Shown: positions 2,701 to 25,596 of the stretch, piece after piece | Layout of the letters: the number at the start of each line of letters is the position of its first letter | How positions within the stretch are numbered: the stretch's first letter is position 1 | Assembly: GCA_964443135.1 (NCBI GenBank) | Contig: CAYUBQ010000005.1 | Location: 13,692 to 77,691, forward strand | DNA from: an uncultured Desulfobacterales bacterium | GTDB lineage: Bacteria; Desulfobacterota; DSM-4660; Desulfatiglandales; HGW-15 | Direction: 5' to 3' | DNA length: 64,000 nt | The notes under the pieces: model-generated | What the model saw: only the letters and a program-made list of their open reading frames with translations | The model's database searches: none | Told to the model about the DNA's origin: nothing | Translations under genes and position numbers: made by a program

Positions 2701-3387
2701 TCAAGGCGTTTTCCGAGGGGAGGGCTCCCCCCCCCCGGACCCCGCGACCTCCAGGAGCAGGCGGGCGGCCGCCTCGGCCCCTCCGGTCGAACGCCGCGGA
2801 GAGCGGGCGAGGGAGAGGAGGGCCGGGAGGTCGTCCACCCAGCTCCCGTCGAGAAACCGGGGCTCCGGGATGGGCATGCCGGGCATCCGGTCGCGGACGA
2901 ACCCGGCCAGAACGGCGGATTCCCGAAAGCTTCCGGGCAGGATGTAGCCGAACGGCGGGCCCGCCTCGTGGACCTCGGCCAGCGTGCTGTACCCCGCCTT
3001 GCCCACCACGGCGTCCGCGGCGCGGACCAGGTCGGGGTGGTAGAAGCCCGAGTGGGGAGGGAGGAGCGTCAGGTTCCCCTCTTTCCCCGGGCTCTCCGCG
3101 CCGCCGGGGAACAGGAAACGGACGCCCTCCGCTTGCCGGAGGCGGTCGAAGAACGTCCAGGACCCCGGGACCCCGCCCAGGGTGACGAGCACCAGGGGGC
3201 GGTCCGGATCGACTCCCAGGGCGCTCCGCACCTCCGGCGGGAAGGCGGTCCGGGGCCCTGTATCGCATGGTTTCCGGAAATCGCTCGCGGCTGTCCATGG
3301 GGTTTTCTCCCGGTCCAACGTTTCCCCATCCTTGTAACACAGGGCGGCCTTCGCCGCCACGGTTTCCGGGGAGGAGGTGACCGTTTC
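2701..3387 (-). pseudogene. GT-B glycosyltransferase-like C-terminal half (MurG/GT28-like); start undefined, possibly truncated
   Basis: PLVLVTLGGVPGS...DAVVGKAGYSTLAEVHEAGPPFGYILPGSFRESAVLAGFV resembles the second Rossmann half of GT28/MJ1255-type transferases. The ATGs of track ORF 2701..3594 lie inside or opposite the kinase gene start. No first Rossmann half is visible. Confidence 0.35.
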
Positions 3388-3523
3388 GCCCGCGTGTTCG
3401 AGCCCATGGGTCCGGATTGATTCTTTCCATCCCCCGGGATTTCCGCTATGCTTCCCGCACCACCAACCGCAGCGGCGCCGGCCGGTGCTCAGCCGGACGG
3501 CGGCACACCGCGGGGGGATCGAC

Positions 3524-5071: not shown

Positions 5072-5285
5072 TCGTTGAAAGGGGTGTACATCGCCGCCGG
5101 ATCCGTGTACCATTCGAGATCGCGGTCCCCTGACCGTGTGTCCAGAGGATCGGTTCATCGGCAATCCAGGCGCCCGAAGACCGCGAATCCTTTCTCCTCC
5201 CCCTCCCGACCCAGATCCGGCGCTGTCTTCGCGGATTCCGGAGCCCGTTCAGGACGTTCAGGTATCCAGGCGAGGATGCTCGACC

Positions 5286-10813: not shown

Positions 10814-10829
10814 TGGCACGCTTTCTGCT
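10814..10829 (+). promoter_or_regulatory. Sigma-54 (-24/-12) promoter of the hdr-type operon
   Basis: TGGCACGCTTTCTGCT. GG is at 10815-16 and GC at 10827-28 with canonical spacing (TGGCAC-N5-cTGC). It lies about 90 nt upstream of ATG 10919. Confidence 0.65.
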
Positions 10830-10918: not shown

Positions 10919-11356
10919 ATGCACCCTTCCGCTCCTGGAAAGAAGGTCCTGGTGGTCGACGACGAGCCGGATGAGAGGATTTTCCTCTGCAGGCTCCTGG
11001 AGCTGGGCGGCTACGCGTCGATTCTGGCCTCCGACGCCACCGAGGGGCTCGAAATGGCGGTGCGGGAGCGGCCGGACTTGATTTTGCTGGCCGTCATGTT
11101 CGACCACCACGGCAATCTCCTGTTGTTCGACGATCTCAAGCTGGATGCCACCCTCAAGCAGATCCCCGTGGTCCTTCTCTCCTCCATCGACAAGAAGACC
11201 CTGTTTCAGCTCCGGGCCCTCCCCGGAGCATCCAGGGGGAACTTTCTCCTGAGACCCGAGGGCTTCCTGGGCAAGCCGCCGGAAGCGGACGAGCTCCTGG
11301 GTCTCCTGCAAACCCTGACCCGATCGGGGCCCCCGGAACCCCCGGTCGGCCTTTGA
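10919..11356 (+). CDS. Single-domain pseudo-receiver (CheY fold, phospho-acceptor Asp replaced by Ala)
   Basis: ATG 10919 lies inside track ORF 10736..11356. Motifs: KKVLVVDDEPDE, PDLILLAVMF (Ala58, gcc 11090-11092, where receivers carry the acceptor Asp), VVLLSS, and FLGKP. Confidence 0.8.
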   Translation: MHPSAPGKKVLVVDDEPDERIFLCRLLELGGYASILASDATEGLEMAVRERPDLILLAVMFDHHGNLLLFDDLKLDATLKQIPVVLLSSIDKKTLFQLRALPGASRGNFLLRPEGFLGKPPEADELLGLLQTLTRSGPPEPPVGL

Positions 11357-11366
11357 GGCGGAAGCC

Positions 11367-14300
11367 ATGGAGATGAGAGTCGGTTTTTACATCTGTCACT
11401 GCGGGATCAACATCGCCGGCAAGGTGGACGTGGAGGCCGTGGCGGCCTACATTCGAACCCTTCCCGGCGTGACGATCTCCCGGGACTACAAGTTCATGTG
11501 CTCGGACCCCGGCCAGGAGATGATCGTCGACGACATCCGCGAGCACGGACTGAACCGGGTGGTGGTGGCTTCCTGCTCTCCCCGGCTTCACGGCAAGACC
11601 TTCATGGGCGCCTGCCAGCGCGCCGGCCTCAATCCGTACTACTTCCAGATGGCCTCGGTCCGGGAGCAGGTCTCCTGGGTGACCGAGGATCCGGAGCGTG
11701 CCACGGACAAGGCCAAGAGCCTGGCCCGGGCGGCGGTGAATCGGGTACGGCTCCACGAGAGCCTCTTCGCGCGTCACGCCCGGGTCCACCCCGACGTGTT
11801 GGTCGTGGGGGGCGGCATCGCCGGGATCCAGGCCGCCCTGGACATCGGGGCCGCCGGCCGGAAGGTGTACCTGGTGGAGCGGGATCCGACCATCGGCGGG
11901 CACATGCTCCAGTTCGACAAGACCTTTCCCACGCTCGACTGCGCCGCCTGTATCGGGACGCCCAAGATGGTGGAGGTCGCACAGAACCCCTACGTGGAGC
12001 TCCTCTCCTACAGCGAGGTCAAGGAGGTCAACGGATTCATCGGCAACTACACGGTCACGGTCCGGAAAAAGCCCCGCTACGTCGTCGAAGGGGTGTGTAC
12101 GGGCTGCGGCGAGTGCGCCGAGGTCTGCCCGGTGGCCGTTCCCAGCGAGTGGGACGAGAGGCTGGCGGAGCGGGCGGCCGTGTACCGATCTTTCCCCCAG
12201 GCCGTCCCCGTCACCTACGTCATCGACAAGCGCGATCGCGCCCCCTGCACCACGGCCTGTCCGGCCGGGATCAACGTGCAGGGCTACGTACAGCTGGTCA
12301 AGCTGGGAAAGTACGACGAGGCCGTGCGCCTGATCCGGGAACGGCTTCCGCTCCCGGGCGTCCTGGGAAGGGTCTGCCCGGCCTTCTGCGAGAACGGTTG
12401 CCGGCGGACGGAGCTGGACGCAGCCGTGGCCATTCGACAGCTCAAGCGTGTCGCGGCCGACCGGGCCGCCGCATCGGCCTGGGAAACCCCCACGATCGAG
12501 GAACGGAAGGAACGGGTGGCCGTGATCGGGTCCGGCCCGGCCGGTCTGAGCGCGGCCTACTTCCTCCGCCTGGACGGGTTTCAGGTGACCCTGTTCGAGG
12601 CCCTGGAGAAGCTGGGCGGCATGCTCCGCACGGGCATTCCGGACTTTCGCCTGCCGCCGGAGATCCTGGACCGGGAGATCGAGCAGATCCTGGCGCTGGG
12701 GGTGGAGGTGCGGACCGGTACGGTCCTGGGCAGGGACCTCCAGCTGGACTCCCTGAAGGAGCAGGGGTTCGGGGCGGTCTTCCTGGGGATCGGGGCCCAC
12801 AAGGACCTGTCCCTCGGCGTGGAGGGAGAGGAAAGCGAAGGCGTGCTTCGGGCCGTGGAGTTCCTGCGACGGGCCAACCTCGGGGAGAGGCTGGAGGTGG
12901 GGGGGCGGGTGGTCGTGGTGGGCGGCGGCAACGTGGCCGTGGACGCCGCGCGTGTCGCCCGGCGGCTGGGCGCGGAGGAGGTCTCCATCGTCTACCGCCG
13001 GTCCGAGGCCGAGATGCCCGCCTATCCCGAGGAGATCGAAGGGGCGAGGGAAGAGGGAATCCGCATCGCTTACCTGAAGGCCCCGGTCCGGGTGGTTTTG
13101 GAGAACGGCCGCGCGTCGGGGCTGGAGTGTATCGACACCCGGCTCGGACCGCCCGACGAGCGCGGGCGGCGACGGCCCGAGCCGGTGGCGGGATCCGAGC
13201 ACGTGCTGCCCGTGGACACGGTCATCACGGCCATCGGACAGCGGGTGGACGACGCCTGGGCCCGTGAGACGGGGCTCGCGTGGAGCCGTCAGGGGACCAT
13301 CCAGACGCATCCCCGAACCCTGCAAACCTCCCTTTCGCACGTGTTCGCGGCCGGCGACGCGGTGAGCGGACCGGCCAGCGTGGTGGAGGCCGTGGGTGCG
13401 GGACGTAGGGCCGCCCGGGCCGTCCGCCGCTTTCTCGAGGAAGAGGACCTGGCGAACGAGCCGGAGGAGGCCGGGGAGACCGCCTGGGGCCGGGACTGGA
13501 GCCCCGTCCCCGGCGACTCGAAGCGCGTGGAGCGGGCCGAGCCGTCGCACCGCGACGCGCAGGAGCGGGTTCGGGGGTTCGCCGAGGTGGAAGGCGCCCT
13601 CGACGAGGGGCGGGCGCGAGCCGAGGCGGAGCGCTGCCTCAACTGCGGGGTCTGCTCCGAGTGCATGGAGTGCGTAAAGGTGTGCGAGGCGCACGCCATC
13701 GACCACGCCATGGAGGCCCAAGAGGTCGAGCTCCAGGTGGGGAGCATCATCCTCGCCACGGGCTACGATCTCCTGGACCCCACCCCCATGAAGCCCTTCG
13801 GGTACGGGAAGTACCCCAACGTCTTCACCAGCCTCGAGTTCGAACGTATGAACAACGCCACCGGGCCCACCGGCGGACGGATCCTCATGCGGGACGGGAA
13901 GGGCGGGTTCTCTCATCCGCCCGAGAGCGTGGCCGTCGTCCACTGCGTGGGAAGCCGGGACGACCGCTATCACAGCTACTGCTCGCGGGTCTGCTGCATG
14001 TACGCCCTCAAGTACGGGCACCTGGTGCACGACAAGGTGGGGCCCGAAACCCGGATCTACGACTTCTACATCGACATGCGGTGCTTCGGGAAGGGGTACG
14101 AGGAGTTTTACCGCCGGTGCCAGGAGGAGGGCATCCAGTTCATCCGGGGCAAGCCCGCCGAGATCCTGGAGGAGGACGGAAAGCTGGTCCTGGTGGGGGA
14201 GGACACCCTGATCGGGCGCCGCTATCGCGTTCCCGTGGACATGGTGGTGCTCTGCGCCGCCATGCAGGCGAGGGCCGATGCGGGGGCGGTGGGTCGGATT

Positions 14301-14750
14301 TTCGGGATCAGCCAGGGGCAGGACGGGTTCTACCTGGAGGAGCACCCCAAGCTGGCGCCTCTTTCGACGGCCTCGGACGGGATCTTTCTGGCCGGGACCT
14401 GCCAGGCCCCCCGGGACGTGCCGGACACCGTGGCCCAGGCCTCGGGGGCGGCCGCCAAGTCTTTGGCCCTGGCCTCCCTGGGGGAGGTGCAGATCGAGCC
14501 CACCACGAGCTGGATCGACCCGGACATCTGCGCCGGATGCCAGGTGTGCATCGATCTCTGCCCTTACGGTGCCATCGAGTTCGATCCCCAGCGGCATGTC
14601 TCCGTGGTCAACGAGGCCCTGTGCAAAGGTTGCGGGAGCTGCGCGGGGTTCTGCCCGAGCGGTGCGGCCCGGTGTGCGTCCTTCAAGAGCCGGCAGCTGT
14701 TCGCGGAGCTGGACGGCATCTTCGACGCCGTTCATCAGGTGGGGCGGTAG
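11367..14750 (+). CDS. hdrL: HdrL-type large HdrA flavoprotein with inserted GltD/NfnB-like NAD(P)H module
   Basis: HdrA hallmarks: VLVVGGGIAGIQAALD, TFPTLDCAACI, CTGCGECAEVCP, HCVGSRDDRYHSYCSRVCCMYALKY and C-terminal CAGCQVCIDLCP/CKGCGSCAGFCP. Residues about 290-692 carry GltD-type motifs: CTTACPAG, GRVCPAFCENGC, VAVIGSGPAGLSAAYFL, VVVVGGGNVAVDAARV, YRRSEAEMPA. Confidence 0.9.
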   Translation: MEMRVGFYICHCGINIAGKVDVEAVAAYIRTLPGVTISRDYKFMCSDPGQEMIVDDIREHGLNRVVVASCSPRLHGKTFMGACQRAGLNPYYFQMASVREQVSWVTEDPERATDKAKSLARAAVNRVRLHESLFARHARVHPDVLVVGGGIAGIQAALDIGAAGRKVYLVERDPTIGGHMLQFDKTFPTLDCAACIGTPKMVEVAQNPYVELLSYSEVKEVNGFIGNYTVTVRKKPRYVVEGVCTGCGECAEVCPVAVPSEWDERLAERAAVYRSFPQAVPVTYVIDKRDRAPCTTACPAGINVQGYVQLVKLGKYDEAVRLIRERLPLPGVLGRVCPAFCENGCRRTELDAAVAIRQLKRVAADRAAASAWETPTIEERKERVAVIGSGPAGLSAAYFLRLDGFQVTLFEALEKLGGMLRTGIPDFRLPPEILDREIEQILALGVEVRTGTVLGRDLQLDSLKEQGFGAVFLGIGAHKDLSLGVEGEESEGVLRAVEFLRRANLGERLEVGGRVVVVGGGNVAVDAARVARRLGAEEVSIVYRRSEAEMPAYPEEIEGAREEGIRIAYLKAPVRVVLENGRASGLECIDTRLGPPDERGRRRPEPVAGSEHVLPVDTVITAIGQRVDDAWARETGLAWSRQGTIQTHPRTLQTSLSHVFAAGDAVSGPASVVEAVGAGRRAARAVRRFLEEEDLANEPEEAGETAWGRDWSPVPGDSKRVERAEPSHRDAQERVRGFAEVEGALDEGRARAEAERCLNCGVCSECMECVKVCEAHAIDHAMEAQEVELQVGSIILATGYDLLDPTPMKPFGYGKYPNVFTSLEFERMNNATGPTGGRILMRDGKGGFSHPPESVAVVHCVGSRDDRYHSYCSRVCCMYALKYGHLVHDKVGPETRIYDFYIDMRCFGKGYEEFYRRCQEEGIQFIRGKPAEILEEDGKLVLVGEDTLIGRRYRVPVDMVVLCAAMQARADAGAVGRIFGISQGQDGFYLEEHPKLAPLSTASDGIFLAGTCQAPRDVPDTVAQASGAAAKSLALASLGEVQIEPTTSWIDPDICAGCQVCIDLCPYGAIEFDPQRHVSVVNEALCKGCGSCAGFCPSGAARCASFKSRQLFAELDGIFDAVHQVGR

Positions 14751-14831
14751 TGCAGGTGAAGGGTGAGTGGTGTCAGTGAGAAAAAAGCAGGCGGAAAGCG
14801 AGGCACCGAAAACAAGAGAGCGGGGAGCATC

Positions 14832-15260
14832 ATGAGCAACGACGATTTCGAGCCCATCATCATTGCGTTCGTCTGCAACTGGTGCACGTACACGGCTGCG
14901 GATCTGGCCGGGACCTCCAGGCTGATCTACCCGATCAACGTACGTCTGGTCCGGGTCATGTGCACCGGCATGGTGGATCCCAAGTACGTGATCAAGGCGT
15001 TCCTGGAGGGCGCGGACGCCGTGCTCATCAGCGGGTGCCACCCGGGCGACTGCCACTACATCAACGGAAACTTCAAGGCCAGGCGGAGGGTCAAGCTGCT
15101 CGAGGAGATCCTGCCGCAGTTCGGCATCGAACCGGAGCGTCTCAAGCTCACCTGGATCGGGGCGAGCGACGGCCTGGAGTTCGCCCACACGGTGGACGGC
15201 CTGGTCGCTTCGATCAGGGAGATCGGCCCGACCGAGGTCAGGCACACCATGGTCCTGTAA
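14832..15260 (+). CDS. mvhD: MvhD/FlpD-family protein (methyl-viologen-reducing hydrogenase delta subunit-like)
   Basis: ATG 14832. Diagnostic sequence: IIAFVCNWCTYTAADLAGTSRLIYPINVRLVRVMCTGMVDP...GADAVLISGCHPGDCHYINGN. Confidence 0.9.
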   Translation: MSNDDFEPIIIAFVCNWCTYTAADLAGTSRLIYPINVRLVRVMCTGMVDPKYVIKAFLEGADAVLISGCHPGDCHYINGNFKARRRVKLLEEILPQFGIEPERLKLTWIGASDGLEFAHTVDGLVASIREIGPTEVRHTMVL

Positions 15261-15274
15261 ACCGAGAGGTCAGC

Positions 15275-16414
15275 ATGTCCCAGGGATTCAAGATCGAGGT
15301 CAAGGAAGGCGATGTCCAAGGCGCACTGCGGGACTTTCTGGGAAAGATCCTCGAGCGGGAGGAGATCCGCGCCGTCCTGACGCCGCTGCGTCTGCCGTAC
15401 AAGGGGAACGTCATGCAAACGCTGGTGGCCGACAGGGAGCGGCTCGGCGCGGCGGAACCCCTTTCCCCGGCCTATCCCCTGAGCGGGGCCAGGATCCTGA
15501 GCCGGCTGACCCGGGAGGAAGCGGGCGGCCGGGTCGCCGCCGTGCTCCGCCCATGCGAGATTCGGGCCTTCGTGGAGCTCGTCAAGCTCAAGCAGGCGTC
15601 CCGTCAAGACCTGGTTCTCATCGGTCTGGACTGTCCCGGGGCCTTCTCGAACGACGTGTTCGCCCGGGCCGCAGCCGAGGACGAAGCGGGGGACCTGACC
15701 CGGCGCTTTTTTCGTGCCGCCTTTGCCGGGGAGGAAGACCCGGCGGGGTACGAGCTCGCCGGCGCTTGCCGCGCCTGCGAGCACGTCACGCCGGACGCGG
15801 CCGACGTGGCGGTCGGGCTCCACGGCGGGGACCCGGAGCGGGAGATCTGGGTCGAGGCCCGGACCGAGGCCGGTGAAGCCTTGCTGGCCGACCTGGGTCT
15901 CCCGGAGGCCACGGAACCGGAGGGCCGTTCCAGGACCGTGAAGGAGCGGGTCGAGAGGGCGGTCCAGCGGCGGGAAGAGATGTTCGACCGGACCCTGCAG
16001 GCCACCGGCGGCGTGGAGAAGCTCACGTCCTATCTCGCCTCCTGCGTGAACTGCTACAACTGCCGCGTGGCTTGCCCGGTCTGCTACTGCCGGGAGTGTG
16101 TGTTCGGGACGGACGTCTTCGAGCACGAACCCCGGCAATACTTGAACTGGGCCGACCGGAAGGGGGCCGTGAAGATGCCCACGGACACGGTGTTCTACCA
16201 CCTCACGCGCATGGCCCACATGGCGGCTTCCTGCGTGGGCTGCGGCCAGTGCTCGAACGCCTGCCCGAACGACATCCCGGTCATGGAGCTGTTTCGCACC
16301 GTGGCCCGCAGGGTGCAGCAGGACTTCGACTACGAGCCCGGTCGCAGTGTGGAGGAACCGCTTCCCCTTGCGGTGTTCCGCGAGAACGAGTTGGCCGAGG
16401 TGGTGGGACGATGA
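15275..16414 (+). CDS. FrhB/FdhB-like FeS protein with 2x[4Fe-4S] ferredoxin motif
   Basis: ATG 15275 lies inside track ORF 14882..16414. AAVLRPCEIRAFVELVK...LVLIGLDCPGAF resembles the FrhB/FdhB family. Cluster motifs: CVNCYNCRVACPVCYC and CVGCGQCSNACPND. The stop overlaps the next start (ATGA at 16411-16414). Confidence 0.7.
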   Translation: MSQGFKIEVKEGDVQGALRDFLGKILEREEIRAVLTPLRLPYKGNVMQTLVADRERLGAAEPLSPAYPLSGARILSRLTREEAGGRVAAVLRPCEIRAFVELVKLKQASRQDLVLIGLDCPGAFSNDVFARAAAEDEAGDLTRRFFRAAFAGEEDPAGYELAGACRACEHVTPDAADVAVGLHGGDPEREIWVEARTEAGEALLADLGLPEATEPEGRSRTVKERVERAVQRREEMFDRTLQATGGVEKLTSYLASCVNCYNCRVACPVCYCRECVFGTDVFEHEPRQYLNWADRKGAVKMPTDTVFYHLTRMAHMAASCVGCGQCSNACPNDIPVMELFRTVARRVQQDFDYEPGRSVEEPLPLAVFRENELAEVVGR

Positions 16415-19400
16415 GACGAAAGATCGGCAAGGCGCTCGTGGTGGGCGCGGGAATCGCCGGCATTCGATCCGCCCTGGATCTGGCCGAGACCGGTTACGGA
16501 GTGACGCTGATCGAGCGCGCCCCCCACATCGGCGGCATCCTGGCGCAGCTCGACCGCCAGTTCCCGACGGATGCCTGCGGCATGTGCCGGATGCTTCCCA
16601 TGGTGGAGCGGGACGCCGGCGGCCAGTACTGCCTGCGCAAGGGGCTCTTCCACGAGAACATCGACCTGAGGCTGGGAACCGAGCTGAAGGGTCTGGAAGG
16701 GGAGCCCGGGAGGTTCGAGGCCACCTTGAGCACGCGAAGGGCGCGAATCGATCCGGACCGCTGTCAGGGCTGCGGCGCGTGCGCGGAGGCCTGCCCCGTG
16801 GAGCTCCCCGATCCTTTCAACGAGGGCCTCTCCGCGAGGAAGGCCGTCTATCTTCCCGTGCCCCACGCGGTGCCGAACCCGTTTGTCATCGATGCGGAGG
16901 CCTGCACCCTCTGCGGCGCCTGCGAGCAGGTCTGCCCCACCGACGCGATCACCCTCGGGGACCCCGGCCGGAAGGCGTTCCGCGTTCTCGTCGTGGACGA
17001 CGAGAGGATTGTCCGGGACTCCCTCGAGGACTGGCTCGAGGACGTGGGGTTCGGTGTGGAGACGGCGGCCTCGGGCCAGGAGGCCCTGGATCGGCTGGCG
17101 CAGGATCCCTTCGACCTCCTGCTGGTGGACATCAAGATGCCCGGCATGGACGGGGTGGAGGTCCTGCGCCGGGCGCGTGAGAGCCGCCCCGACCTCACCG
17201 TGATCATGATCACGGCGTACGCCACGGTGGACACCGCGGTGGAGGCCATGAAGATCGGCGCCCTGGACTACCTGACCAAACCGTTCGACCCGGAAAAGCT
17301 GGTTCCGATGGTGGAAACCGTGTACCAGGACCGCCACGGCCCCGGACGGGAGACCCTGGAGGTGGGGGCCGTGGTGCTGGCCTGCGGCATGTCCGTCCTC
17401 GACCCCTCCGAAGGGTTCGGTTGGACCGGGTACGCCGAGATGGCCGACGTGGTGACCGGACTCGAGCTCGAAAGGATCCTGAGCGGGACAGGCCCCACGG
17501 GGGGGCGTCTGACGAGGCCCTCCGACGGCGGGCCCGTAAAGCGGATCGCCTGGCTCCAGTGCGTGGGGTCCCGGGACCGGCAGGCCGACGCGGAGTTCTG
17601 CTCCTCCATCTGCTGCATGATCTCCCTCAAGGAGGCGCGCCTGGTCCGAAAGCGCACGGGCGGCGAGGTGGAGACCCACATCTTCTACATGGACCTCCGC
17701 ACCCCGGGGAAGCGTTTTCAGCGCTACGAAGAAGGGGCGGAGGCCGAAGGCGTGCAGCTCCACCGGGTACGGGTCCACTCGGTGGTGCCGGAGGAGAGGA
17801 CCGGGCTACCCCGGATCCAGTACGTCTCGGAGGAGGGCGTCCTCCGGGAGGAGACCTTTGACCTGGTGGTGCTCGCGACGGGGGCCCGGCCTCCGGCCGG
17901 AACCGGCGAGCTGGCCGACATGCTCGATCTGGAACGAAACCCGTGGGGGTTTGTTCAGCCCCGGGCGTTTCACCCGGCCGTGTCCAGCCGCGAAGGCGTG
18001 CTCCTTAGCGGGGCCTTCGGGGCTCCTTGCGACATCGCCGACTCGGTCCTGTTGGCCGGCGGAGCAGCCCTGGAGGCCTCCCGCATCATTCACGCCGCGG
18101 GAGGAGGCCTTGCGCCGGAGGAGTCAGAGGAGAGCCCGTACCGGGACGTCTCGCGGGAGCGGCCCAGGAGCCTGATCGCGCTCTGCCGATGTGCCAGGGA
18201 CACCGTTCCCGACCTCGATCTCGAAGGCCTGGCCCGCGACCTGGAGGCCGACCCCGGAGTGGCCCGGGTGGAGGTCGTCGAGAACCTCTGCACGGCCTCC
18301 GGCTGGGACGCTCTGGTGGAGGCGGCCCGGAAGAAGCGACCCAACCGCATCCTTTTGGGGGCGTGCCTTCCTTACGTCTACGGCCGGCGGCTCCGCGAGC
18401 TGGGCAGGCAAATCGGTCTGGCCCCGGGCTACATGGACGTGGTGGATCTTCGGACACCCTTCTTCTCCGTCAATGAACCCGAGGCGGCCCGCCGCCTGGC
18501 CGGCTCGGAGATCCGCATGGCGCTGGCCCGAGTTCGACGCCCCGGCCCGCCGGTCCGGGAGGTCCGGACCGTGGAGCCCCGGGCCCTGGTGGTGGGGGGC
18601 GGAATCGCGGGCCTCTATGCGGCGCTGGCCATCGCCGATCACGGCTACCCCGTGGAGATCGTGGAGCGCGAAGCAGCCCCGGGCGGAAACCTGACCTGGT
18701 TGCCGCGCACGCTCGAGGGCAGGGAGCCGGCGGAGCTCCTGGAAGGGGTCCTGGCCGAGGTGGAAAAGCACCCCCAGGTTCAACTGCACGCCTCGGCGGA
18801 GGTGGTCGAGTCCTCCGGTCGAGCGGGCCGGTTCAGGACCGTGATTCAGAACGCCGAGGGGGTTCGCCGAACCGTGGAGCACGGTGTGGTCATCCTGGCC
18901 ACCGGCGGCCGCGAGGCGGAGCCCGAGGGGTTCGGTCGGGGCGAAGCGGAGAAGGTCCTCACCCAGCGGGAGTTGGAACGGGTCCTGGCCGGGGAGGACC
19001 TGGATCCCGCCGGTCTCGAGTCCGTGGTGATGATCCAGTGCGCCGGGACCCGCACCGGGTCCCGCAACTACTGCAGCCGCGTCTGCTGCCCCACGGCCGT
19101 GCGCCAGGCTCTGCTTCTCCGTGAAAGGAACCCGGAGCTCTCGGTCTGGGTCCTCTACCGGGACATGATGACGCCCGGGTTCCTGGAGGCGGACTACGCC
19201 CGGGCCCGGGAGGCCGGGGTGCACTTCATCCGGTACGCACCCGAGCGGAGGCCGGCGGTGGAGGCTGGGTCGGAGAAGGCGGCGGTCACCGTGTGGGAGC
19301 CGGTGCTGGGGAGGGAGGTTCGGATCCCGGCGGACCTGGTGGTCCTGGCGGGCGGGGTTTCACCCGAGCTGCCCGCGGAGCTCGCCGCGACCTTTGGCGC

Positions 19401-19833
19401 CGGGCTGGACGAGGCCGGCTTCTTCCAGGAGGCCGACGGCAAGTGGCGGCCCGTGGACGCCCTGCGTGAGGGGGTGTTCGCCTGCGGGCTGGCCCTCTCG
19501 CCCCGCACCGTGGCCGAGTCCCTGGCCTCGGCCGGCGCCGCGGCGGAACGGGCCCTTCGCATCCTCGCAAGGGAGACCCTCCCCGTGGACCTTCGGGTGG
19601 CGCGCGTCCGTCACGCCCTCTGCTCGCGTTGCGAGCAGTGCCTGGACGCCTGCCCTTACGAGGCCCGCTACGTGGATCCGGAGAAGGGCCTGGTGGTCGT
19701 GGACGAGACGGCGTGTCAGGGCTGCGGAAGCTGCGCGGCCGTCTGCCCGAACAGCGCCACGGTGCTGGAAGGGCTGGACGACCGCCGGATGCTCGAGTCC
19801 ATCGACGCGGCCCTGGAGGCGGGTTGGAGGTGA
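16411..19833 (+). CDS. Tandem HdrA-type flavoprotein (two HdrA modules) with an embedded CheY-type receiver domain
   Basis: Module 1: ALVVGGGAGIAGIRSALD-type fold (KALVVGAGIAGIRSALD), FPTDACGMC, CQGCGACAEACP, CTLCGACEQVCP, then REC (aa about 190-306), then WLQCVGSRDRQADAEFCSSICCMISLKE. Module 2: ALVVGGGIAGLYAALA, MIQCAGTRTGSRNYCSRVCCPTAV, and C-terminal CSRCEQCLDACP/CQGCGSCAAVCP. Confidence 0.9.
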   Translation: MRRKIGKALVVGAGIAGIRSALDLAETGYGVTLIERAPHIGGILAQLDRQFPTDACGMCRMLPMVERDAGGQYCLRKGLFHENIDLRLGTELKGLEGEPGRFEATLSTRRARIDPDRCQGCGACAEACPVELPDPFNEGLSARKAVYLPVPHAVPNPFVIDAEACTLCGACEQVCPTDAITLGDPGRKAFRVLVVDDERIVRDSLEDWLEDVGFGVETAASGQEALDRLAQDPFDLLLVDIKMPGMDGVEVLRRARESRPDLTVIMITAYATVDTAVEAMKIGALDYLTKPFDPEKLVPMVETVYQDRHGPGRETLEVGAVVLACGMSVLDPSEGFGWTGYAEMADVVTGLELERILSGTGPTGGRLTRPSDGGPVKRIAWLQCVGSRDRQADAEFCSSICCMISLKEARLVRKRTGGEVETHIFYMDLRTPGKRFQRYEEGAEAEGVQLHRVRVHSVVPEERTGLPRIQYVSEEGVLREETFDLVVLATGARPPAGTGELADMLDLERNPWGFVQPRAFHPAVSSREGVLLSGAFGAPCDIADSVLLAGGAALEASRIIHAAGGGLAPEESEESPYRDVSRERPRSLIALCRCARDTVPDLDLEGLARDLEADPGVARVEVVENLCTASGWDALVEAARKKRPNRILLGACLPYVYGRRLRELGRQIGLAPGYMDVVDLRTPFFSVNEPEAARRLAGSEIRMALARVRRPGPPVREVRTVEPRALVVGGGIAGLYAALAIADHGYPVEIVEREAAPGGNLTWLPRTLEGREPAELLEGVLAEVEKHPQVQLHASAEVVESSGRAGRFRTVIQNAEGVRRTVEHGVVILATGGREAEPEGFGRGEAEKVLTQRELERVLAGEDLDPAGLESVVMIQCAGTRTGSRNYCSRVCCPTAVRQALLLRERNPELSVWVLYRDMMTPGFLEADYARAREAGVHFIRYAPERRPAVEAGSEKAAVTVWEPVLGREVRIPADLVVLAGGVSPELPAELAATFGAGLDEAGFFQEADGKWRPVDALREGVFACGLALSPRTVAESLASAGAAAERALRILARETLPVDLRVARVRHALCSRCEQCLDACPYEARYVDPEKGLVVVDETACQGCGSCAAVCPNSATVLEGLDDRRMLESIDAALEAGWR

Positions 19834-19893
19834 CCGGAGCCGTTCGGAAGGGCGGCTGAGCGGCGAACACGGGACATGCCCCGAGGTGACGTC

Positions 19894-20472
19894 ATGGTGG
19901 AGATTCAGAAGCAGGACCCGCGCGGATCGAACGGAGCGGAGGGACCGGATCCCCTGGCTGCGGTGCGGAAGCTGATTCAGCCCTGCATCCAGTGCGGGAC
20001 GTGCACGGGCTCGTGCCCCAACGCGTTCGCCATGGACCTCACGCCCCGCGTGCTGTGGCGGCTTGTGCTGAGGGGAGAGGTCGACGAGATCTTCCACAGC
20101 CGGACCTTCACGCTCTGCTCCTCCTGCTACTCCTGCACGTTGCGGTGTCCCCGTCAGCTCCCGGTGACCGAGGCCATGGCCGGTCTCAAGCAGGAGGCCG
20201 CGAGGCGCCGGCCGGAGCTCCATCGCCCCAGCGCGGCGTTCAGCAGGACCTTCATGGACAGCGTCCGCAGGCACGGCCGGGTCAACGAGATGGAGTTCAT
20301 GTTCTTCTACTTCGCCGCCCGGAAGAACCCGCTCCTTCCCTTTCGATTTTCTCCCATGGGCATGAGGCTGATGCGAAGGGGTAAGGTGAAGGTGTCCGTG
20401 CCCGGGTCGGGCGGAAACGACGTTTTGGATTCCCTGTTTCGAAACGTGGAGCGACTGGAGCGCACCCCATGA
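19894..20472 (+). CDS. hdrC: Heterodisulfide reductase subunit C-like (2x[4Fe-4S])
   Basis: Cluster motifs CIQCGTCTGSCP and CSSCYSCTLRCP. Start preferred at ATG 19894 (GAGGTGA 5 nt upstream) over 19876. The stop overlaps the hdrB start (ATGA). Confidence 0.85.
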   Translation: MVEIQKQDPRGSNGAEGPDPLAAVRKLIQPCIQCGTCTGSCPNAFAMDLTPRVLWRLVLRGEVDEIFHSRTFTLCSSCYSCTLRCPRQLPVTEAMAGLKQEAARRRPELHRPSAAFSRTFMDSVRRHGRVNEMEFMFFYFAARKNPLLPFRFSPMGMRLMRRGKVKVSVPGSGGNDVLDSLFRNVERLERTP

Positions 20473-21335
20473 GGTACTTCTACTACCCGGGATGCTCCCT
20501 GGAGGGAACCGCAAGGGAGTACGACCTGAGCACCCGTGCCTTTCTCCGCGCGGCCGGGATGGACCTGGTGGATCTGCCCGACTGGACCTGCTGCGGGGCC
20601 ACCGCGGCCCAGGGAATGAGCCGGCTGCTTGCCCTGGCCCTCCCGGCCCGGAATCTGGCCCTGGCCGAGAGGACCGGTGAGACCCTGGACATCCTGGTTC
20701 CCTGCAGCGCCTGCTACCTGAACCTGAGAAGGGCCGAGGAGAGGATCCGCTCGGGCGGGGAGGCGAAGCGCGAGATCAACGAGGCCCTGTCCGAGACCGG
20801 GCTCCAGTGCAGCGGGGGAGTCCGGGTGCGTCACCTCCTCGACGTTCTCTCCCGGGACCTGGACGCCGCCTGGCTGGCCGAACGCGTGACGCGCCCCCTC
20901 GAGGGGATGCGCATCGCCTCCTACTACGGTTGCCAGTGCCTGCGGCCGTATGCGGACTTCGACGACCCGGAGGAGCCTCGAACCATGGAGCCGCTCATCC
21001 GGGCCACCGGCGCGGAACTGTTCTCCTGGACCGCCGGGGCCCGCTGCTGCGGCGCTTCCCACATGACCACCAAGCCCGAGATCGGGATCGAACTCGTGGC
21101 CGGTCTGCTCGAGGCGGCGCGCGGGGCGGATGCCATCGTGACCGTGTGCCCCATGTGCCAGATGAACCTCGAGGCCTACCAGCGAAAGGCCTCGCGCGTC
21201 CGGGGAGCCGACCTGAGTGCGACCGTTCTCTACCTTCCCCAGCTTCTCGGCCTCGCGCTGGGCCTTTCGAGTGACGAGGTCCGCCTCGATCTCAACCTCG
21301 CCGTCGGGCGGGGGTTCAAGAAAACGGCCGCCTGA
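20469..21335 (+). CDS. hdrB: Heterodisulfide reductase subunit B-like (two CCG domains)
   Basis: Motifs: YYPGCSL, DWTCCGAT, VPCSACY, YYGCQC, ARCCGAS and TVCPMCQMNL. Confidence 0.9.
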   Translation: MRYFYYPGCSLEGTAREYDLSTRAFLRAAGMDLVDLPDWTCCGATAAQGMSRLLALALPARNLALAERTGETLDILVPCSACYLNLRRAEERIRSGGEAKREINEALSETGLQCSGGVRVRHLLDVLSRDLDAAWLAERVTRPLEGMRIASYYGCQCLRPYADFDDPEEPRTMEPLIRATGAELFSWTAGARCCGASHMTTKPEIGIELVAGLLEAARGADAIVTVCPMCQMNLEAYQRKASRVRGADLSATVLYLPQLLGLALGLSSDEVRLDLNLAVGRGFKKTAA

Positions 21336-21360: not shown

Positions 21361-23667
21361 GTGTTCTCCTGGATCAAGAGCCTTCGGCAGAGGCTGGTGA
21401 CCAAGCTGATCCTGACCGTGGGGTTGACCCTGCTGGTCAGCATCTCGGCCTGGTCGTACGCCATCGTCCGTTACCAGGAGAACCAGACCATGCGCAACCT
21501 TTCCCTGGAGGCGGATCGTCTGAGCACGACCATCAAGCTGGGCACCCACTACGCCATGATGCTGAACTCCAGGGAGGACATCGCCGAGACCATCAAGAAC
21601 ATCAGCCGCCAGCCGGAGATCAAGGCCATCCGCATCTACAACAAGTCGGGCCAGATCACCTACTCGGACGATGCGGAGGAGATCGGCCGGATCACGAACA
21701 TCAAGGACGAGGCCTGCTACGTGTGCCATCGCAGCGACCCGCCCCTGGTCGAGCTGGACCTGTCCGAAAGGACCAGGATCTTCAAGGGTGAAAACGAAAC
21801 CCGCATGCTCGGCATCCTGAGCGCCATCTACAACGAGCCGGGGTGCGCCTCCGCGGCGTGCCACATCCACCCCGAGGGCAAAGAGGTCCTGGGGGCGCTG
21901 GACGTGGTGCTTACCCTGGCCCCGGCGGAAAAGAGGATCACCGCCTACAAGCAGTGGACCACGGCCATGACCGTGCTCGTCCTCCTGGTCACGACCGTGG
22001 CGGTGCTCCTGTTCATCATGCGCTTCGTCAATCGTCCTGTGAGCCACATGATCGCGGCCACCCGGCGGATCGCGAGGGGTGAAAGCGACGTGGGCGTGGA
22101 AGTCCGCCAGGAGGACGAGATGGGCCAGCTGGCGGACGCCATCACCTACATGGGCGGTGAGATCGAGCGGAACCAGGCGGCCCTCAACAAGCAGCGCAAG
22201 GAGTACCAGCGGTTGTTCGAGCTCGTCCCCTGCATCATCACGGTGCAGGACCGAAACTACAGGCTCATCAACTACAACCGGGAGTTCGCCGAGAAGTTCG
22301 CCCCCACTCCCATGGACACCTGCTACCATGCCTACAAGGGCCGAACGAGCAAGTGCGATCCGTGCCCCGTGGAGAGGGCCTTCGAGGACGGTGAGGTTCA
22401 TCAAAGCGAGGAGTCCGGGATGAACTGGGACGGCACCATGAGCCACTGGATCGTGATCGCCACCCCGGTCTGGAACGAGAAGGGCGAGATCCAGTCGGCC
22501 ATGGAGATCAGCCTGGACATCACGGAACGTCGGCTCCTGGAGCAGGAGCTGGAAAAGTCCGAGCAGAAGTATCACGCCATCTTCAACAACATTCCCAACG
22601 CCGTCTTTGTCCTGGATCCGGACACCCTGGACATCCTCGACTGCAACGACAGCATAACCCAGGTGTACGGCTACGGAAAAGACGAGATCTTGAACCGGTC
22701 CTTCCTGGAGCTTCACGAGGAGAAGGGGCGCGAGCAGTTCAGGAAGATGCTCAAAGCCTACGAGGTGCTCAACCGGGTGCAGCACGAGCACAAGACGGGG
22801 AGGACGATCTACGTGAACATTCGGGTCTCCCCCTCCGAGTACACCGGTCAGAAGGTGCTCCTGGTCACCACGAGCGACATCACCAAGAGGCTGGAGACCG
22901 AGGAGCAGCTGGCCCAGGCGAGCAAGCTGGCCACCCTGGGGGAGATGGCCACGGGTGTGGCCCACGAGCTCAACCAGCCCCTTTCCGTGATCAAGACCGT
23001 GTCCAGCTTTTTCATGAAGAAGCTGAACGCAGCGCAGGAAATACCCGCCGAGACGCTGTACCAGATGCTCGGCAAGGTGGACACCAACGTGGACCGGGCC
23101 ACCAAGATCATCACCCACATGCGTCTCTTCGCCCGGAAGTCAGAGATGAAGCTCGACCAGGTGCGGATCGAGGACGTGCTGGACCGGGCCTTCGACATCT
23201 TCACCCAGCAGCTCAGGGTACGCGGCATCGAGGTGGTTCGGGAGTTCGGTGAGACGTCGCCCCCCATCATGGCGGATCCGGACCGGTTGGAGCAGGTCTT
23301 CATCAATCTCCTGATCAACGCCAGGGACGCCATCGAGGAGCGGTGGGCGGGTCGGGAGAGCGAGTCGGGGGACAAGCGGATCACCGTGAGGACGAGGTCC
23401 GAGGACGGTGCCGTGGTGGTGGAGGTGCAGGACACGGGCTCCGGGATCGACGGCGCCCACAAGGACAAGATCTTCGATCCCTTCTTCACCACGAAGGAGG
23501 TGGGGAAGGGGACCGGACTGGGACTGTCCATCAGCTACGGGATCGTCAAGGACTGCGGGGGAGACATCTGCGTGGCTCGGAACGAAGGACCCGGCGCCTG
23601 CTTCGCGGTCCGGTTCCCCGTGAAGGATGAAGAGGATGAATCGACAGACCATACTCCTGGTGGATGA
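21361..23667 (+). CDS. Transmembrane sensor histidine kinase: extracytoplasmic CXXCH domain, HAMP, 2x PAS, HisKA, HATPase
   Basis: GTG 21361 lies 25 nt after hdrB. TM1 spans aa 14-35, followed by a 165-aa loop with CYVCH (21715-21729) and CASAACH (21844-21864), then TM2 and HAMP. Kinase motifs: H-box GVAHELNQPLS, NLLINARDAI, DTGSGI, GTGLGLS. Confidence 0.85.
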   Translation: MFSWIKSLRQRLVTKLILTVGLTLLVSISAWSYAIVRYQENQTMRNLSLEADRLSTTIKLGTHYAMMLNSREDIAETIKNISRQPEIKAIRIYNKSGQITYSDDAEEIGRITNIKDEACYVCHRSDPPLVELDLSERTRIFKGENETRMLGILSAIYNEPGCASAACHIHPEGKEVLGALDVVLTLAPAEKRITAYKQWTTAMTVLVLLVTTVAVLLFIMRFVNRPVSHMIAATRRIARGESDVGVEVRQEDEMGQLADAITYMGGEIERNQAALNKQRKEYQRLFELVPCIITVQDRNYRLINYNREFAEKFAPTPMDTCYHAYKGRTSKCDPCPVERAFEDGEVHQSEESGMNWDGTMSHWIVIATPVWNEKGEIQSAMEISLDITERRLLEQELEKSEQKYHAIFNNIPNAVFVLDPDTLDILDCNDSITQVYGYGKDEILNRSFLELHEEKGREQFRKMLKAYEVLNRVQHEHKTGRTIYVNIRVSPSEYTGQKVLLVTTSDITKRLETEEQLAQASKLATLGEMATGVAHELNQPLSVIKTVSSFFMKKLNAAQEIPAETLYQMLGKVDTNVDRATKIITHMRLFARKSEMKLDQVRIEDVLDRAFDIFTQQLRVRGIEVVREFGETSPPIMADPDRLEQVFINLLINARDAIEERWAGRESESGDKRITVRTRSEDGAVVVEVQDTGSGIDGAHKDKIFDPFFTTKEVGKGTGLGLSISYGIVKDCGGDICVARNEGPGACFAVRFPVKDEEDESTDHTPGG

Positions 23668-25216
23668 TGAGGAAGACATCCGCCTCGTGCTGAGCGTTGC
23701 CCTCACCGACATGGGGTACGACGTGATTGCGGCCGAGAACGGCAAGGAGGCCCTCCGGCTGTTTCGAGAGAAACGTCCGCCCATCGTCATCACGGACATC
23801 AAGATGCCCGACATCGACGGCGTGGACCTTCTCAGGACGATCAAGGAGGAGGCTCCGGACACCGAGGTCGTCATGATCACCGGGCACGGGGACATGGACG
23901 TGGCCATTCAGAGCTTTCAACAGGAGGCCACGGACTTCATCACCAAGCCCATAAACGTGGAGAATCTGGAAAACTCGTTGCAGCGCGTGCACGAGCGGAT
24001 CCTCGCTCGGGAGAAGCTGCGGCAGTACACCCACTCTCTGGAGAGCATGGTCTACCGGAAGTCGGAGGAGCTGGCCAGCCTGGAAAAGACGCTCCAGGGC
24101 GGGGACGGCGGGCCGCCGGCGGGTGACGTCGTCCGGCGGTTCCAGCGGCTCTTCGACGACCTCCCCTGCCACGTGGCGGTGATGGACGAGGAACTGGTCC
24201 TCACCGCCGTCAACCGGAAGTTTCGTCGGGACTTCGGTGACCGTGAGGGGGAGTTGTGCTATCATGTGTTGAAAAATGCGAAAGCCCCCTGCACGGACTG
24301 CGCTGTGCAGGAGACCTTCGGCACGGGCGAGAGCCAGGAGGGGGAGGCGGAGATCACCACGCCGGACGGCGTCGCGCATCAGGTCCTCGTGTGGACCTCG
24401 CCGGTACGCACGGCCGGGGACGACCCCACCCACGTGCTCACGCTCTACACGGACATGACCCAGATCCGGAAGGTCCAGGACCACCTGAGCTCGCTGGGGC
24501 TCATGGTGGGATCCATCTCCCACAGCATCAAGGGCATGCTCACGGGCCTGGACGGCGGCATGTACCTGCTGGACTCGGGCCTGCGGAGGCAGGACGACGA
24601 TCAGGTCCACGAAGGCCTTGGCGTGGTCAAGGAGATGGTGGGACGGATCCGGAACATGGTGCTGGACGTCCTGCTCTTTTCCAAGGACCGGGATCTCAGG
24701 AAGGTCGAGACGGGGGTGGCGGAGTTCGCCGCGGAGGCGGCCAAGGGGATTCGATCCCTGGTGGAGGAGCACGGGATTGACTTCAGCCTGGAGTGCCCCG
24801 AGGACGCCGGCGTGTTCGAGGTGGACCCGGGGCTTCTCCGCACGGCCTTTGTGAACGTGCTCGAGAACGCGGTGGACGCGTGTCTCGAGGACAAGAGCCG
24901 GAAGGACCACCGGATTGCGTTTCGCGTTCGTGGTGAGGAGGACGAGGTCGTCTTCGAGGTGGAGGACGACGGCGTGGGCATGGACGAAGAGACCCGAGAG
25001 AAGATGGCCACCCTGTTTTTCTCTTCGAAAGACCGGAAGGGAACCGGGCTGGGGCTCTACATCACGGACCGGACCGTCCGGCAGCACGGCGGCGACATTG
25101 CCGTGGAATCCGAGGCGGGTCGGGGGACGCTGTTCACCATCCGGATTCCACGGAAGGCCGAAGCAGGCGGAGACGCACCCGCAGGTGACGTCGGCGGGCC
25201 GGGGGAGGACACCTGA
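23627..25216 (+). CDS. Hybrid sensor kinase: receiver, Cys-motif PAS, HisKA-like, HATPase
   Basis: REC motifs: LLVDDEEDIR, ITDIKMPDIDG, MITGH, ITKP. The PAS carries C-x10-C-x2-C. Kinase motifs: H-box SISHSIKGML, NVLENAVDA, DDGVGM, GTGLGLY. It overlaps the preceding kinase by about 40 nt. An alternative ATG is at 23636. Confidence 0.85.
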   Translation: MKRMNRQTILLVDDEEDIRLVLSVALTDMGYDVIAAENGKEALRLFREKRPPIVITDIKMPDIDGVDLLRTIKEEAPDTEVVMITGHGDMDVAIQSFQQEATDFITKPINVENLENSLQRVHERILAREKLRQYTHSLESMVYRKSEELASLEKTLQGGDGGPPAGDVVRRFQRLFDDLPCHVAVMDEELVLTAVNRKFRRDFGDREGELCYHVLKNAKAPCTDCAVQETFGTGESQEGEAEITTPDGVAHQVLVWTSPVRTAGDDPTHVLTLYTDMTQIRKVQDHLSSLGLMVGSISHSIKGMLTGLDGGMYLLDSGLRRQDDDQVHEGLGVVKEMVGRIRNMVLDVLLFSKDRDLRKVETGVAEFAAEAAKGIRSLVEEHGIDFSLECPEDAGVFEVDPGLLRTAFVNVLENAVDACLEDKSRKDHRIAFRVRGEEDEVVFEVEDDGVGMDEETREKMATLFFSSKDRKGTGLGLYITDRTVRQHGGDIAVESEAGRGTLFTIRIPRKAEAGGDAPAGDVGGPGEDT

Positions 25217-25239: not shown

Positions 25240-25596
25240 ATGGCCAAGAAGATCCTGGTCGTCGATGACGAGCAGGCGGTCGTCCGGTACATGACCACCC
25301 TGTTCGAGGACCACGGCTACGAGGTCATTGCGGCGACGGACGGGGCCGAGGCCCTCGAGGTCCTGGACCATAGCGTGCCGGATCTCATCACGCTGGACCT
25401 CCAGATGGACAAGGTCTGGGGACCGCAGTTCTACCGGAAGATGAGCAGGAACCCGGCCCTCGAGGAGGTCCCCGTGATTGTCGTGAGCGGCCTCGCCCGG
25501 CCGGAGCTGGCCGTCAAGAAGGCTGCGGCCGTGGTCGGGAAACCCTTCGATCCGGACGAGCTCGTCCGGATCGTTCGAGAACAGATCGGCGAGTAA
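25240..25596 (+). CDS. Single-domain CheY-like response regulator
   Basis: Motifs KKILVVDDEQ, DLITLDLQMD, VIVVSG and VGKPF are all canonical receiver residues. GGAGAGGAGG RBS. Confidence 0.9.
   Translation: MAKKILVVDDEQAVVRYMTTLFEDHGYEVIAATDGAEALEVLDHSVPDLITLDLQMDKVWGPQFYRKMSRNPALEEVPVIVVSGLARPELAVKKAAAVVGKPFDPDELVRIVREQIGE

Follow-up and report, generated by a model that had tools for sequence, protein, structure and literature searches.

A receiver domain inside a tandem HdrA-like flavoprotein and its possible role in the control of electron bifurcation

The flavoprotein gene described here lies in a stretch of 64,000 nucleotides, referred to as the window, from an uncultured Desulfobacterales bacterium (assembly GCA_964443135.1, contig CAYUBQ010000005.1, positions 13,692 to 77,691 of the forward strand). 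The gene (16411..19833 in the coordinates of the window, where all genes and features are on the + strand) encodes HdrA-REC, a protein of 1140 residues composed of two tandem HdrA-like modules, the first of which contains a receiver (REC) domain of the kind found in response regulators (16978..17328, residues 190-306). It belongs to a conserved series of redox genes followed by genes for histidine kinases. Judging from its sequence, the inserted receiver is complete and holds every residue needed for phosphorylation, and the architecture and its conservation suggest that phosphorylation controls a redox enzyme directly. As far as could be established, a receiver internal to an electron-bifurcating flavoprotein is uncharacterised.

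The receiver domain and its host protein

In a Pfam search with the open reading frame of 1140 residues, the Response_reg profile (PF00072) matches residues 192-301 over profile positions 1-110 of 111, with an E value of 1.1e-33 and a score of 116 bits against a curated cutoff of 30.2. This search had been proposed in a preliminary description of the locus, which claimed a complete, in-frame receiver at residues 190-306; the full-profile match bears this out, the reading frame is free of stops and the codons are confirmed. The acidic pair D196/D197 (gac gac, 16996-17001) follows strand beta1, the acceptor D240 (gac, 17128-17130) stands at the end of beta3, T268 (acg, 17212-17214) at the end of beta4, and the Lys-Pro pair K290-P291 (K290 aaa, 17278-17280) follows beta5, which also carries the aromatic switch residue Y287 (tac, 17269-17271). 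The closest solved receivers in a sequence search of the PDB are FixJ, FleR and NtrC1; in NCBIfam the models that fit best are NtrC, FixJ and AtoC.

An AlphaFold2 model of the whole protein, built on 121 homologues, has a predicted local distance difference test (pLDDT) of 85.9 and a predicted template modelling score (pTM) of 0.83. Structure prediction had been suggested as a further check, and the model gives a canonical (beta-alpha)5 fold at residues 191-309, with predicted strands at 191-195, 215-219, 236-240, 263-268 and 286-289, five alternating helices and block-mean pLDDT values of about 75-92. The last helix, alpha5 (residues 294-309), enters the strand 313-318 of the thioredoxin reductase (TrxR)-like fold after only three residues.

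The position of the receiver within HdrA was likewise as first described, between the inserted ferredoxin domain and the point where the TrxR-like fold resumes. In a phmmer comparison with the PDB, residues 6-180 align to residues 141-305 of methanogen HdrA, that is, to the start of its flavin adenine dinucleotide (FAD)-binding region and its inserted ferredoxin domain, and residues 311-506 align to HdrA 311-505. Since the alignment breaks at HdrA 305/311, the receiver (about 127 residues) replaces some five HdrA residues exactly where the ferredoxin insert rejoins the fold. When receiver-less relatives are aligned with it, the receiver stands out as one clean inserted block directly after the second CxxCxxCxxxCP motif. 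The view that this ferredoxin insert is the exit for low-potential electrons finds support in solved Hdr and BamE complexes (PMC13518236; bioRxiv 10.64898/2026.04.10.717634). In the Hdr-Vhu-Fwd assembly, described in a 2026 Nature paper in which conformational gating is stressed, the low-potential electron runs from the flavin to the ferredoxin domain that is inserted in HdrA (PMC13518236).

The host protein consists of module 1 (residues 1-560), which bears the receiver, and module 2 (residues 587-1120). Module 1 opens with the FAD-binding start of a TrxR-like fold (residues 1-110, 16411..16740), which has a GxGxxG motif and two cysteines, Cys56 and Cys59, that are invariant among the window protein and its 120 closest homologues, the 121 sequences to which invariance refers throughout. 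It is followed by the inserted ferredoxin domain (residues 111-184, 16741..16962) with two CxxCxxCxxxCP motifs whose eight cysteines are all invariant and, after the receiver, by the remainder of the fold (residues 311-560, 17341..18090), which has a CVGSRD...CSSICC cluster motif. Module 2 starts with a Cys4 domain of the HdrA N-terminal type (residues 587-715, 18169..18555), where residues 589-753 align to HdrA 5-171 and C592, C594, C627 and C652 are invariant. Its TrxR-like fold (residues 720-1055, 18568..19575) has no ferredoxin insert and is matched by the sHdrA structure 6tjr at residues 725-1051, and the protein ends in a C-terminal ferredoxin domain with two clusters (residues 1056-1120, 19576..19770).

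The alignment with 8RVV and 5ODC shows the features of HdrA, namely a TrxR-like FAD fold, a two-cluster ferredoxin insert, a CxGSRD...CxxxCC motif and a lysine, and HdrA chains rank top when the model is compared with the PDB by Foldseek. The NCBIfam equivalog cutoffs for HdrA/HdrA2 are not reached (641, 508 and 498 bits against 1100, 1400 and 1300), and no dedicated NCBIfam model scores above its cutoff. Members of the family appear in databases under names as different as 'response regulator', 'FAD-dependent oxidoreductase' and 'heterodisulfide reductase subunit A'.

The best counterpart of this arrangement is BamE, from the class II benzoyl-CoA reductase (BCRII) of Geobacter metallireducens, which a 2026 cryo-electron microscopy preprint presents as a fused HdrA dimer (bioRxiv 10.64898/2026.04.10.717634). 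Only the first FAD of BamE bifurcates, with a lysine at N5 and the pair Cys59-Cys62 nearby, while the second is structural, and the inserted ferredoxin domain hands the low-potential electron to an output module (bioRxiv 10.64898/2026.04.10.717634). HdrA-REC has the same layout, with the ferredoxin insert in the first FAD module and the N-terminal-type and C-terminal ferredoxin domains on the second. By the layout given in the preprint, the host is a fused HdrA dimer of the BamE type. The two tandem modules rule out a plain single HdrA as host; the earlier assignment to HdrA holds for the fold and has to be amended in this respect, the receiver lying in the N-terminal module of a fused dimer.

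Lys407 of module 1 (17629-17631) is invariant, as are Cys56 and Cys59, and aligns to the lysine of the methanogen HdrA motif CCMYIMK, which suggests that it may be the flavin-N5 lysine, equivalent to Lys280 of BamE. Because these three residues are invariant in module 1, the receiver can be placed in the module that bifurcates in BamE, behind the low-potential exit. The only stretch modelled with low confidence, residues 41-80 (16531-16650), is the loop with Cys56 and Cys59, the counterpart of the redox-active pair Cys59-Cys62 of BamE. The residue of module 2 that corresponds to the flavin lysine (residue 898, about 19102-19104) is an arginine in the window protein and a lysine in the family consensus; the non-bifurcating FAD of BamE is reported with a glutamine at the equivalent position (bioRxiv 10.64898/2026.04.10.717634).

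Conservation, spread and origin of the insertion

The closest homologues are the 120 best protein clusters from NCBI, JGI, ENA and Logan, which are 53-91% identical to the window protein at 100% coverage and about 1130-1170 residues long. All of them carry PF00072 at the same position, and they include a protein of Desulfonema magnum, whose genome is closed. An exact search for the window protein in a collection of assemblies gave no match. When GTDB species were scanned with one genome each, at least 588 matching stretches were obtained, and among the best 80, which are the basis of the locus counts, the match spans the receiver in 79 species-level loci, the remaining locus being a truncated contig. 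These 80 loci include isolates and closed chromosomes. The carriers are found in the Desulfobacterales (Desulfosarcina, Desulfonema, Desulfobacula, Desulfospira, Desulfatirhabdium and strain N47), the Desulfatiglandales, the Syntrophobacteraceae and the symbionts of gutless Olavius worms. A receiver-bearing HdrA is present in at least 79 species of sulfate reducers and syntrophs, and perhaps in several hundred.

The presence of the same architecture in independent genomes rules out a chimeric assembly or a chance resemblance, the former having been raised as a concern when the domain was first noticed. With an E value of 1e-33, recurrence in 120/120 clusters and 79/80 species loci, and no break in GC content or skew at either junction of the receiver, the probability of such an artefact is negligible. 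The first impression that the architecture had not been characterised stands in so far as a full-text literature search returned no paper describing a receiver inserted in HdrA, some key reviews being beyond its reach, so that an earlier mention is possible. It does not stand as regards singularity, the family being widespread and probably long present in databases.

The receiver is among the best conserved parts of the protein. D196, D197, E198, D240, K242, T268, A269, Y287, K290 and P291 are invariant in the alignment of 121 sequences, so that the acceptor pocket, the conservation of which in orthologues had been named as a point to be checked, is unchanged down to 53% identity. The mean identity of the receiver to the query, 0.70, is the second highest of eight regions compared, after the FAD-binding start of module 1 (0.74) and above the two TrxR bodies (0.54-0.56). 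Each of the two linkers of the receiver has one fixed length in 121/121 sequences, and helix alpha4 and strand beta5, which are near-invariant, form its most conserved surface. Such a pattern is what a working phospho-switch of fixed geometry would show under selection, and not what would be expected of a decayed receiver.

The receiver-bearing proteins are a small part of a much larger family whose members mostly have no receiver. When 1.84 billion cluster representatives were searched exhaustively with HMMER, 2605 proteins were obtained at E <= 1e-30, and just a handful of the top representatives have the receiver; most relatives are about 990-1030 residues long and match residues 1-185 and 315-1136 of the query, which corresponds to a tandem HdrA without a receiver. 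In a neighbour-joining tree calculated with the receiver masked from the alignment, all 19 receiver-bearing sequences fall inside one clade of 22, and 88 receiver-less sequences fall outside it. The other three members of the clade are two genuine receiver-less sequences (P0124 and P0132) and one fragment, all nested among the receiver-bearing ones. The simplest reading of this tree is a single gain of the receiver followed by occasional loss.

Another kind of domain has entered the same part of the protein. Two tandem-HdrA relatives of about 1500 residues, P0164 and P0165, have a GltD-like NAD(P)H module within the same ferredoxin insert, which, together with the receiver, marks the ferredoxin-insert region as a recurrent hot spot for the insertion of whole domains. 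The source of the inserted receiver has also been considered. The solo receiver encoded after HdrB in one receiver-less operon (locus L083) can be ruled out, as it is only 26% identical to the inserted domain; it looks like the counterpart of the solo receiver of the window. Two free-standing receiver genes at other loci, L028:15583-16008 (- strand) and L060:15430-15900 (+ strand), are 54-62% identical to the inserted receiver, and the similarity takes in part of its flanks (query residues 173/187-328). These genes could be fission products of the flavoprotein or represent the donor lineage of the insertion.

The conserved gene neighbourhood

The neighbouring proteins of the window were compared by tblastn with the 80 loci, and the counts given below have as denominators the loci with enough flanking sequence. 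The conserved order of genes is HdrL, MvhD, FrhB-like, HdrA-REC, HdrC, HdrB, a membrane kinase and a receiver-kinase hybrid. The HdrL-type subunit (11367..14750; upstream in 44/48 loci) is an HdrA whose ferredoxin-insert region contains a GltD-like NAD(P)H module. It is followed by an MvhD/FlpD-type [2Fe-2S] adaptor subunit (14763..15260; upstream in 59/60 loci) and by an FrhB/FdhB-like protein of 379 residues with a two-cluster ferredoxin tail (15275..16414; upstream in 65/68 loci), the stop codon of which overlaps the ATG of HdrA-REC (ATGA, 16411-16414), suggesting translational coupling. Downstream lie the HdrC-like Fe-S subunit (19876..20472; 50/64 loci) and the HdrB-like subunit with CCG domains (20469..21335; 49/64 loci). 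HdrA-REC is associated in the genomes with MvhD, HdrC and HdrB, as expected of a member of an Hdr complex. No aldehyde:ferredoxin oxidoreductase (AOR) or HydABC-like genes are found among the conserved neighbours, and membership of the Bam complex itself is therefore unlikely.

Some loci depart from this order. In Desulfonema magnum (CP061800, 8004059-8027490), only HdrC and HdrB follow HdrA-REC, the 10-kb flanks are without HdrL, MvhD, FrhB-like and kinase genes, and there is a transposase gene at the region's edge. The receiver-less locus L086 (protein P0279) begins with a TusA-like protein, followed by HdrC, HdrB, a kinase, a receiver-kinase hybrid and the tandem HdrA; a TusA-like sulfur carrier beside HdrCB hints at a substrate of a sulfur relay.

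The preliminary description had pointed to two neighbouring kinases, and both are present and conserved together with the flavoprotein gene. The first of them, HK1 (21361..23667), is a membrane sensor kinase and the candidate cognate kinase of the receiver. It is composed of a transmembrane segment, a periplasmic domain, a HAMP domain, a Cys-rich PAS domain, a second PAS domain, HisKA and HATPase. Orthologues at 45% identity or more, on the same strand and no more than 8 kb downstream, are found in 40/54 loci, and HK1 directly follows HdrA-REC in loci without HdrCB. Although the periplasmic domain has no significant Pfam match, its CxxCH (CYVCH) and Cx4CH (CASAACH) motifs are kept in 37 orthologues from 37 loci, and the domain resembles a haem-c or redox sensor. 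Four cysteines are conserved in the first PAS domain, and the PAS domain of the second kinase shares the C-x11-C-x2-C motif found there. The kinase core of HK1 is of the AtoS/NtrB type according to NCBIfam, a subfamily compatible with a receiver of the NtrC/FixJ/AtoC kind, which speaks for the two being partners.

The second kinase, HK2 (23627..25216), is a receiver-PAS-kinase hybrid whose start overlaps the end of HK1 by 41 nucleotides, and an HK2-like gene is found downstream in 31/49 loci. It is followed by a stand-alone single-domain receiver of 118 residues (25240..25596). A third kinase, a receiver-PAS-HisKA-HATPase hybrid, is encoded far upstream (3377..5071).

The upstream side also contains a receiver-like protein that lacks the acceptor aspartate, which is an alanine in the copy of the window (10919..11356, in an open reading frame from 10736). 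Homologues of this Asp-less receiver occur in some 40 loci, in most cases immediately upstream of HdrL, and its gene appears to be the first of the putative operon. About 90 nucleotides upstream of its likely start there is a sigma-54-type -24/-12 promoter-like site, TGGCACGCTTTCTGCT (10814..10829); with two matches in the window against 1.0 expected, such sites are not significant window-wide, and the support for this one is positional. A gene for an enhancer-binding protein with the domain order PAS-PAS-sigma54 AAA+-HTH_8, whose start codon is uncertain, lies further upstream (5136..7031), and homologues of this sigma-54 activator are found upstream of HdrL in many loci.

The sigma-54 activator is the sole transcription factor of the locus and has no receiver, so that no DNA-binding receiver protein belongs to the conserved gene set. 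Transcription of the locus is probably served by this activator of its own. As it is not a response regulator, the possible targets of the kinases within the conserved set are only those receivers that are borne by the enzyme or consist of a single domain.

Possible roles of the receiver and comparison with known systems

The best-supported reading, to which we give a little better than even odds, is that the receiver is phosphorylated at Asp240 by the relay of the operon and tunes the low-potential branch of the bifurcating module. Direct control by phosphorylation, though it is reached by inference, is preferred because the receiver is complete and conserved, the kinases of the operon are conserved with it, and the only transcription factor lacks a receiver. 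According to this proposal, HK1, HK2 and the small receivers would form a relay that phosphorylates Asp240. The signal would probably be a redox state, to judge from the haem-c-type motif in the periplasmic domain of HK1 and its Cys-rich PAS domain. Upon phosphorylation, the Thr268/Tyr287 switch would reshape the conserved alpha4-beta5 face, and the short linkers of invariant length would pass this change on to the ferredoxin insert or to a docking partner, by affecting position, mobility or docking. The outcome may be a post-translational tuning of low-potential electron flow in a complex of HdrL, MvhD, the FrhB-like protein, HdrA and HdrCB, in which the effect on catalysis and the substrates are likewise conjectural. 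The more specific proposal that a redox-sensing kinase, via phosphorylation of Asp240, turns the low-potential branch of the bifurcating enzyme on or off, or diverts it, is plausible, at somewhat below an even chance.

Several observations weigh against direct control. In receiver-less L083 (protein P0130), HdrB is followed by a solo receiver, an HK1-like kinase and a sigma-54 activator, and the HK1-like kinases of L083 and L086 keep the same domain with haem motifs. Because these receiver-less loci carry an HK1-like kinase, the link between kinase and Hdr operon must be older than the insertion and not specific to it, and the association alone is therefore no proof that HK1 targets Asp240. 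At least three other receivers are encoded at the locus and are possibly the real targets of the kinases, and some genomes, such as that of Desulfonema magnum, have HdrA-REC without a nearby kinase. The nested lineages P0124 and P0132 imply, moreover, that the receiver is dispensable for catalysis and thus accessory.

Phosphorylation could also act on assembly rather than on gating within a fixed complex. The receiver would then dimerise with a second receiver via alpha4-beta5-alpha5, controlling the formation of the dimer or of a supercomplex, or the recruitment of subunits such as the FrhB-like protein or the HdrL module. Receiver families of the NtrC/FixJ type signal by alpha4-beta5-alpha5 dimerisation, and the closest relatives of the inserted domain, both among solved structures (FixJ, FleR, NtrC1) and in NCBIfam (NtrC, FixJ, AtoC), are of this kind; helix alpha4 and strand beta5 are the best conserved part of its surface, and the complexes of Hdr and BCRII are built as dimers of protomers. 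However, the short fixed linkers on both sides tether the receiver to the core and limit its reach towards a second copy, which leaves this possibility rather unlikely. Less probable again is a role as phosphate sink or feedback element, in which the receiver would take up or lose phosphate at a rate set by the redox state or conformation of the flavoprotein and so drain or spare a relay that controls something else. Multi-receiver systems often include phosphate sinks, and the relay of this locus is unusually rich, with three kinases, of which two are hybrids, and with one solo and one Asp-less receiver; the HK1-like kinase and solo receiver are also retained in receiver-less operons. Against it, no downstream output of such a relay is seen in the conserved gene set, whose sigma-54 activator has no receiver, and a sink would need neither fixed linkers nor a strongly conserved alpha4.

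It is also conceivable, if very improbable, that the domain is a structural scaffold near the ferredoxin insert and is no longer phosphorylated. Judging by the nested receiver-less lineages, the enzyme is able to function in its absence, and nearby kinases are missing in some genomes. Yet all five residues of the pocket are invariant down to 53% identity, as are the aromatic switch residue and the Lys-Pro pair, whereas pseudo-receivers normally lose pocket residues, as the Asp-less receiver at the same locus has done.

If a redox-sensing kinase does turn the low-potential branch on or off, or divert it, via Asp240, electron bifurcation would for the first time be seen under the direct action of two-component signalling, and there would be a natural handle on the conformational gating of HdrA-type enzymes. 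Energy conservation depends centrally on enzymes of this type in methanogens, sulfate reducers, syntrophs and anaerobic degraders of aromatic compounds. In recent structures there are signs that the direction of electrons is gated by domain movements, and no physiological regulator of this gating was found in the literature searched. A receiver beside the low-potential exit, with kinases of its own, would allow electron bifurcation to be controlled after translation, and would add electron routing to the known outputs of response regulators.

Among known systems, BamE resembles HdrA-REC in being a single chain of two fused HdrA-like units with partners of the MvhD and HdrBC types, and the receiver-less relatives of about 1010 residues match its size and layout. 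No receiver has been described for BamE, whereas the present protein has one; HdrC and HdrB are separate at this locus and fused in BamD; and HdrL and the FrhB-like protein are present here, while the AOR-type BamB and the HydABC-like BamGHI are absent from the conserved neighbours. The best solved match is methanogen HdrA (5ODC, 8RVV/8RVU and 7BKB), with an E value of 7e-107 by sequence and 3e-42 by Foldseek. Every domain of HdrA can be identified, and the ferredoxin insert has the same location; in HdrA-REC, however, these domains are split across two fused modules, a receiver follows the ferredoxin insert, and the hosts are bacteria. Bacterial carriers are not expected to use CoM-S-S-CoB.

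A match in terms of gene order is hdr locus VIII of Desulfobacterium autotrophicum, where hdrL, mvhD, fdhB-like, hdrA4, hdrC and hdrB follow each other in the published arrangement, and for which a histidine kinase, a response regulator and a CheY-like regulator are also named in the figure legend (Strittmatter et al. 2009, PMC2702500). By this gene order alone, the family has probably been in databases since at least the 2009 genome of D. autotrophicum, as the HdrA4 of locus VIII. In contrast to the present description, the passages of that report considered here do not mention a receiver inside HdrA4 or propose a regulatory role (PMC2702500).

The HdrL proteins, both that of the window (11367-14750) and that of D. 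autotrophicum, are a further case in which the ferredoxin-insert region of HdrA has taken up a whole domain. The difference is that the insertion in HdrL adds a redox input module, and that in HdrA-REC adds a signalling domain. Direct control of an enzyme by a canonical receiver, without a transcription step, is well known from response regulators whose output is enzymatic, among them CheB, PleD/WspR and RpfG. In these proteins the receiver is terminal, and a flexible linker connects it with a hydrolase or cyclase. In HdrA-REC, by contrast, the receiver is an internal insertion held by two short fixed linkers within a multi-cofactor electron-bifurcating flavoprotein, and its output would be the routing of electrons.

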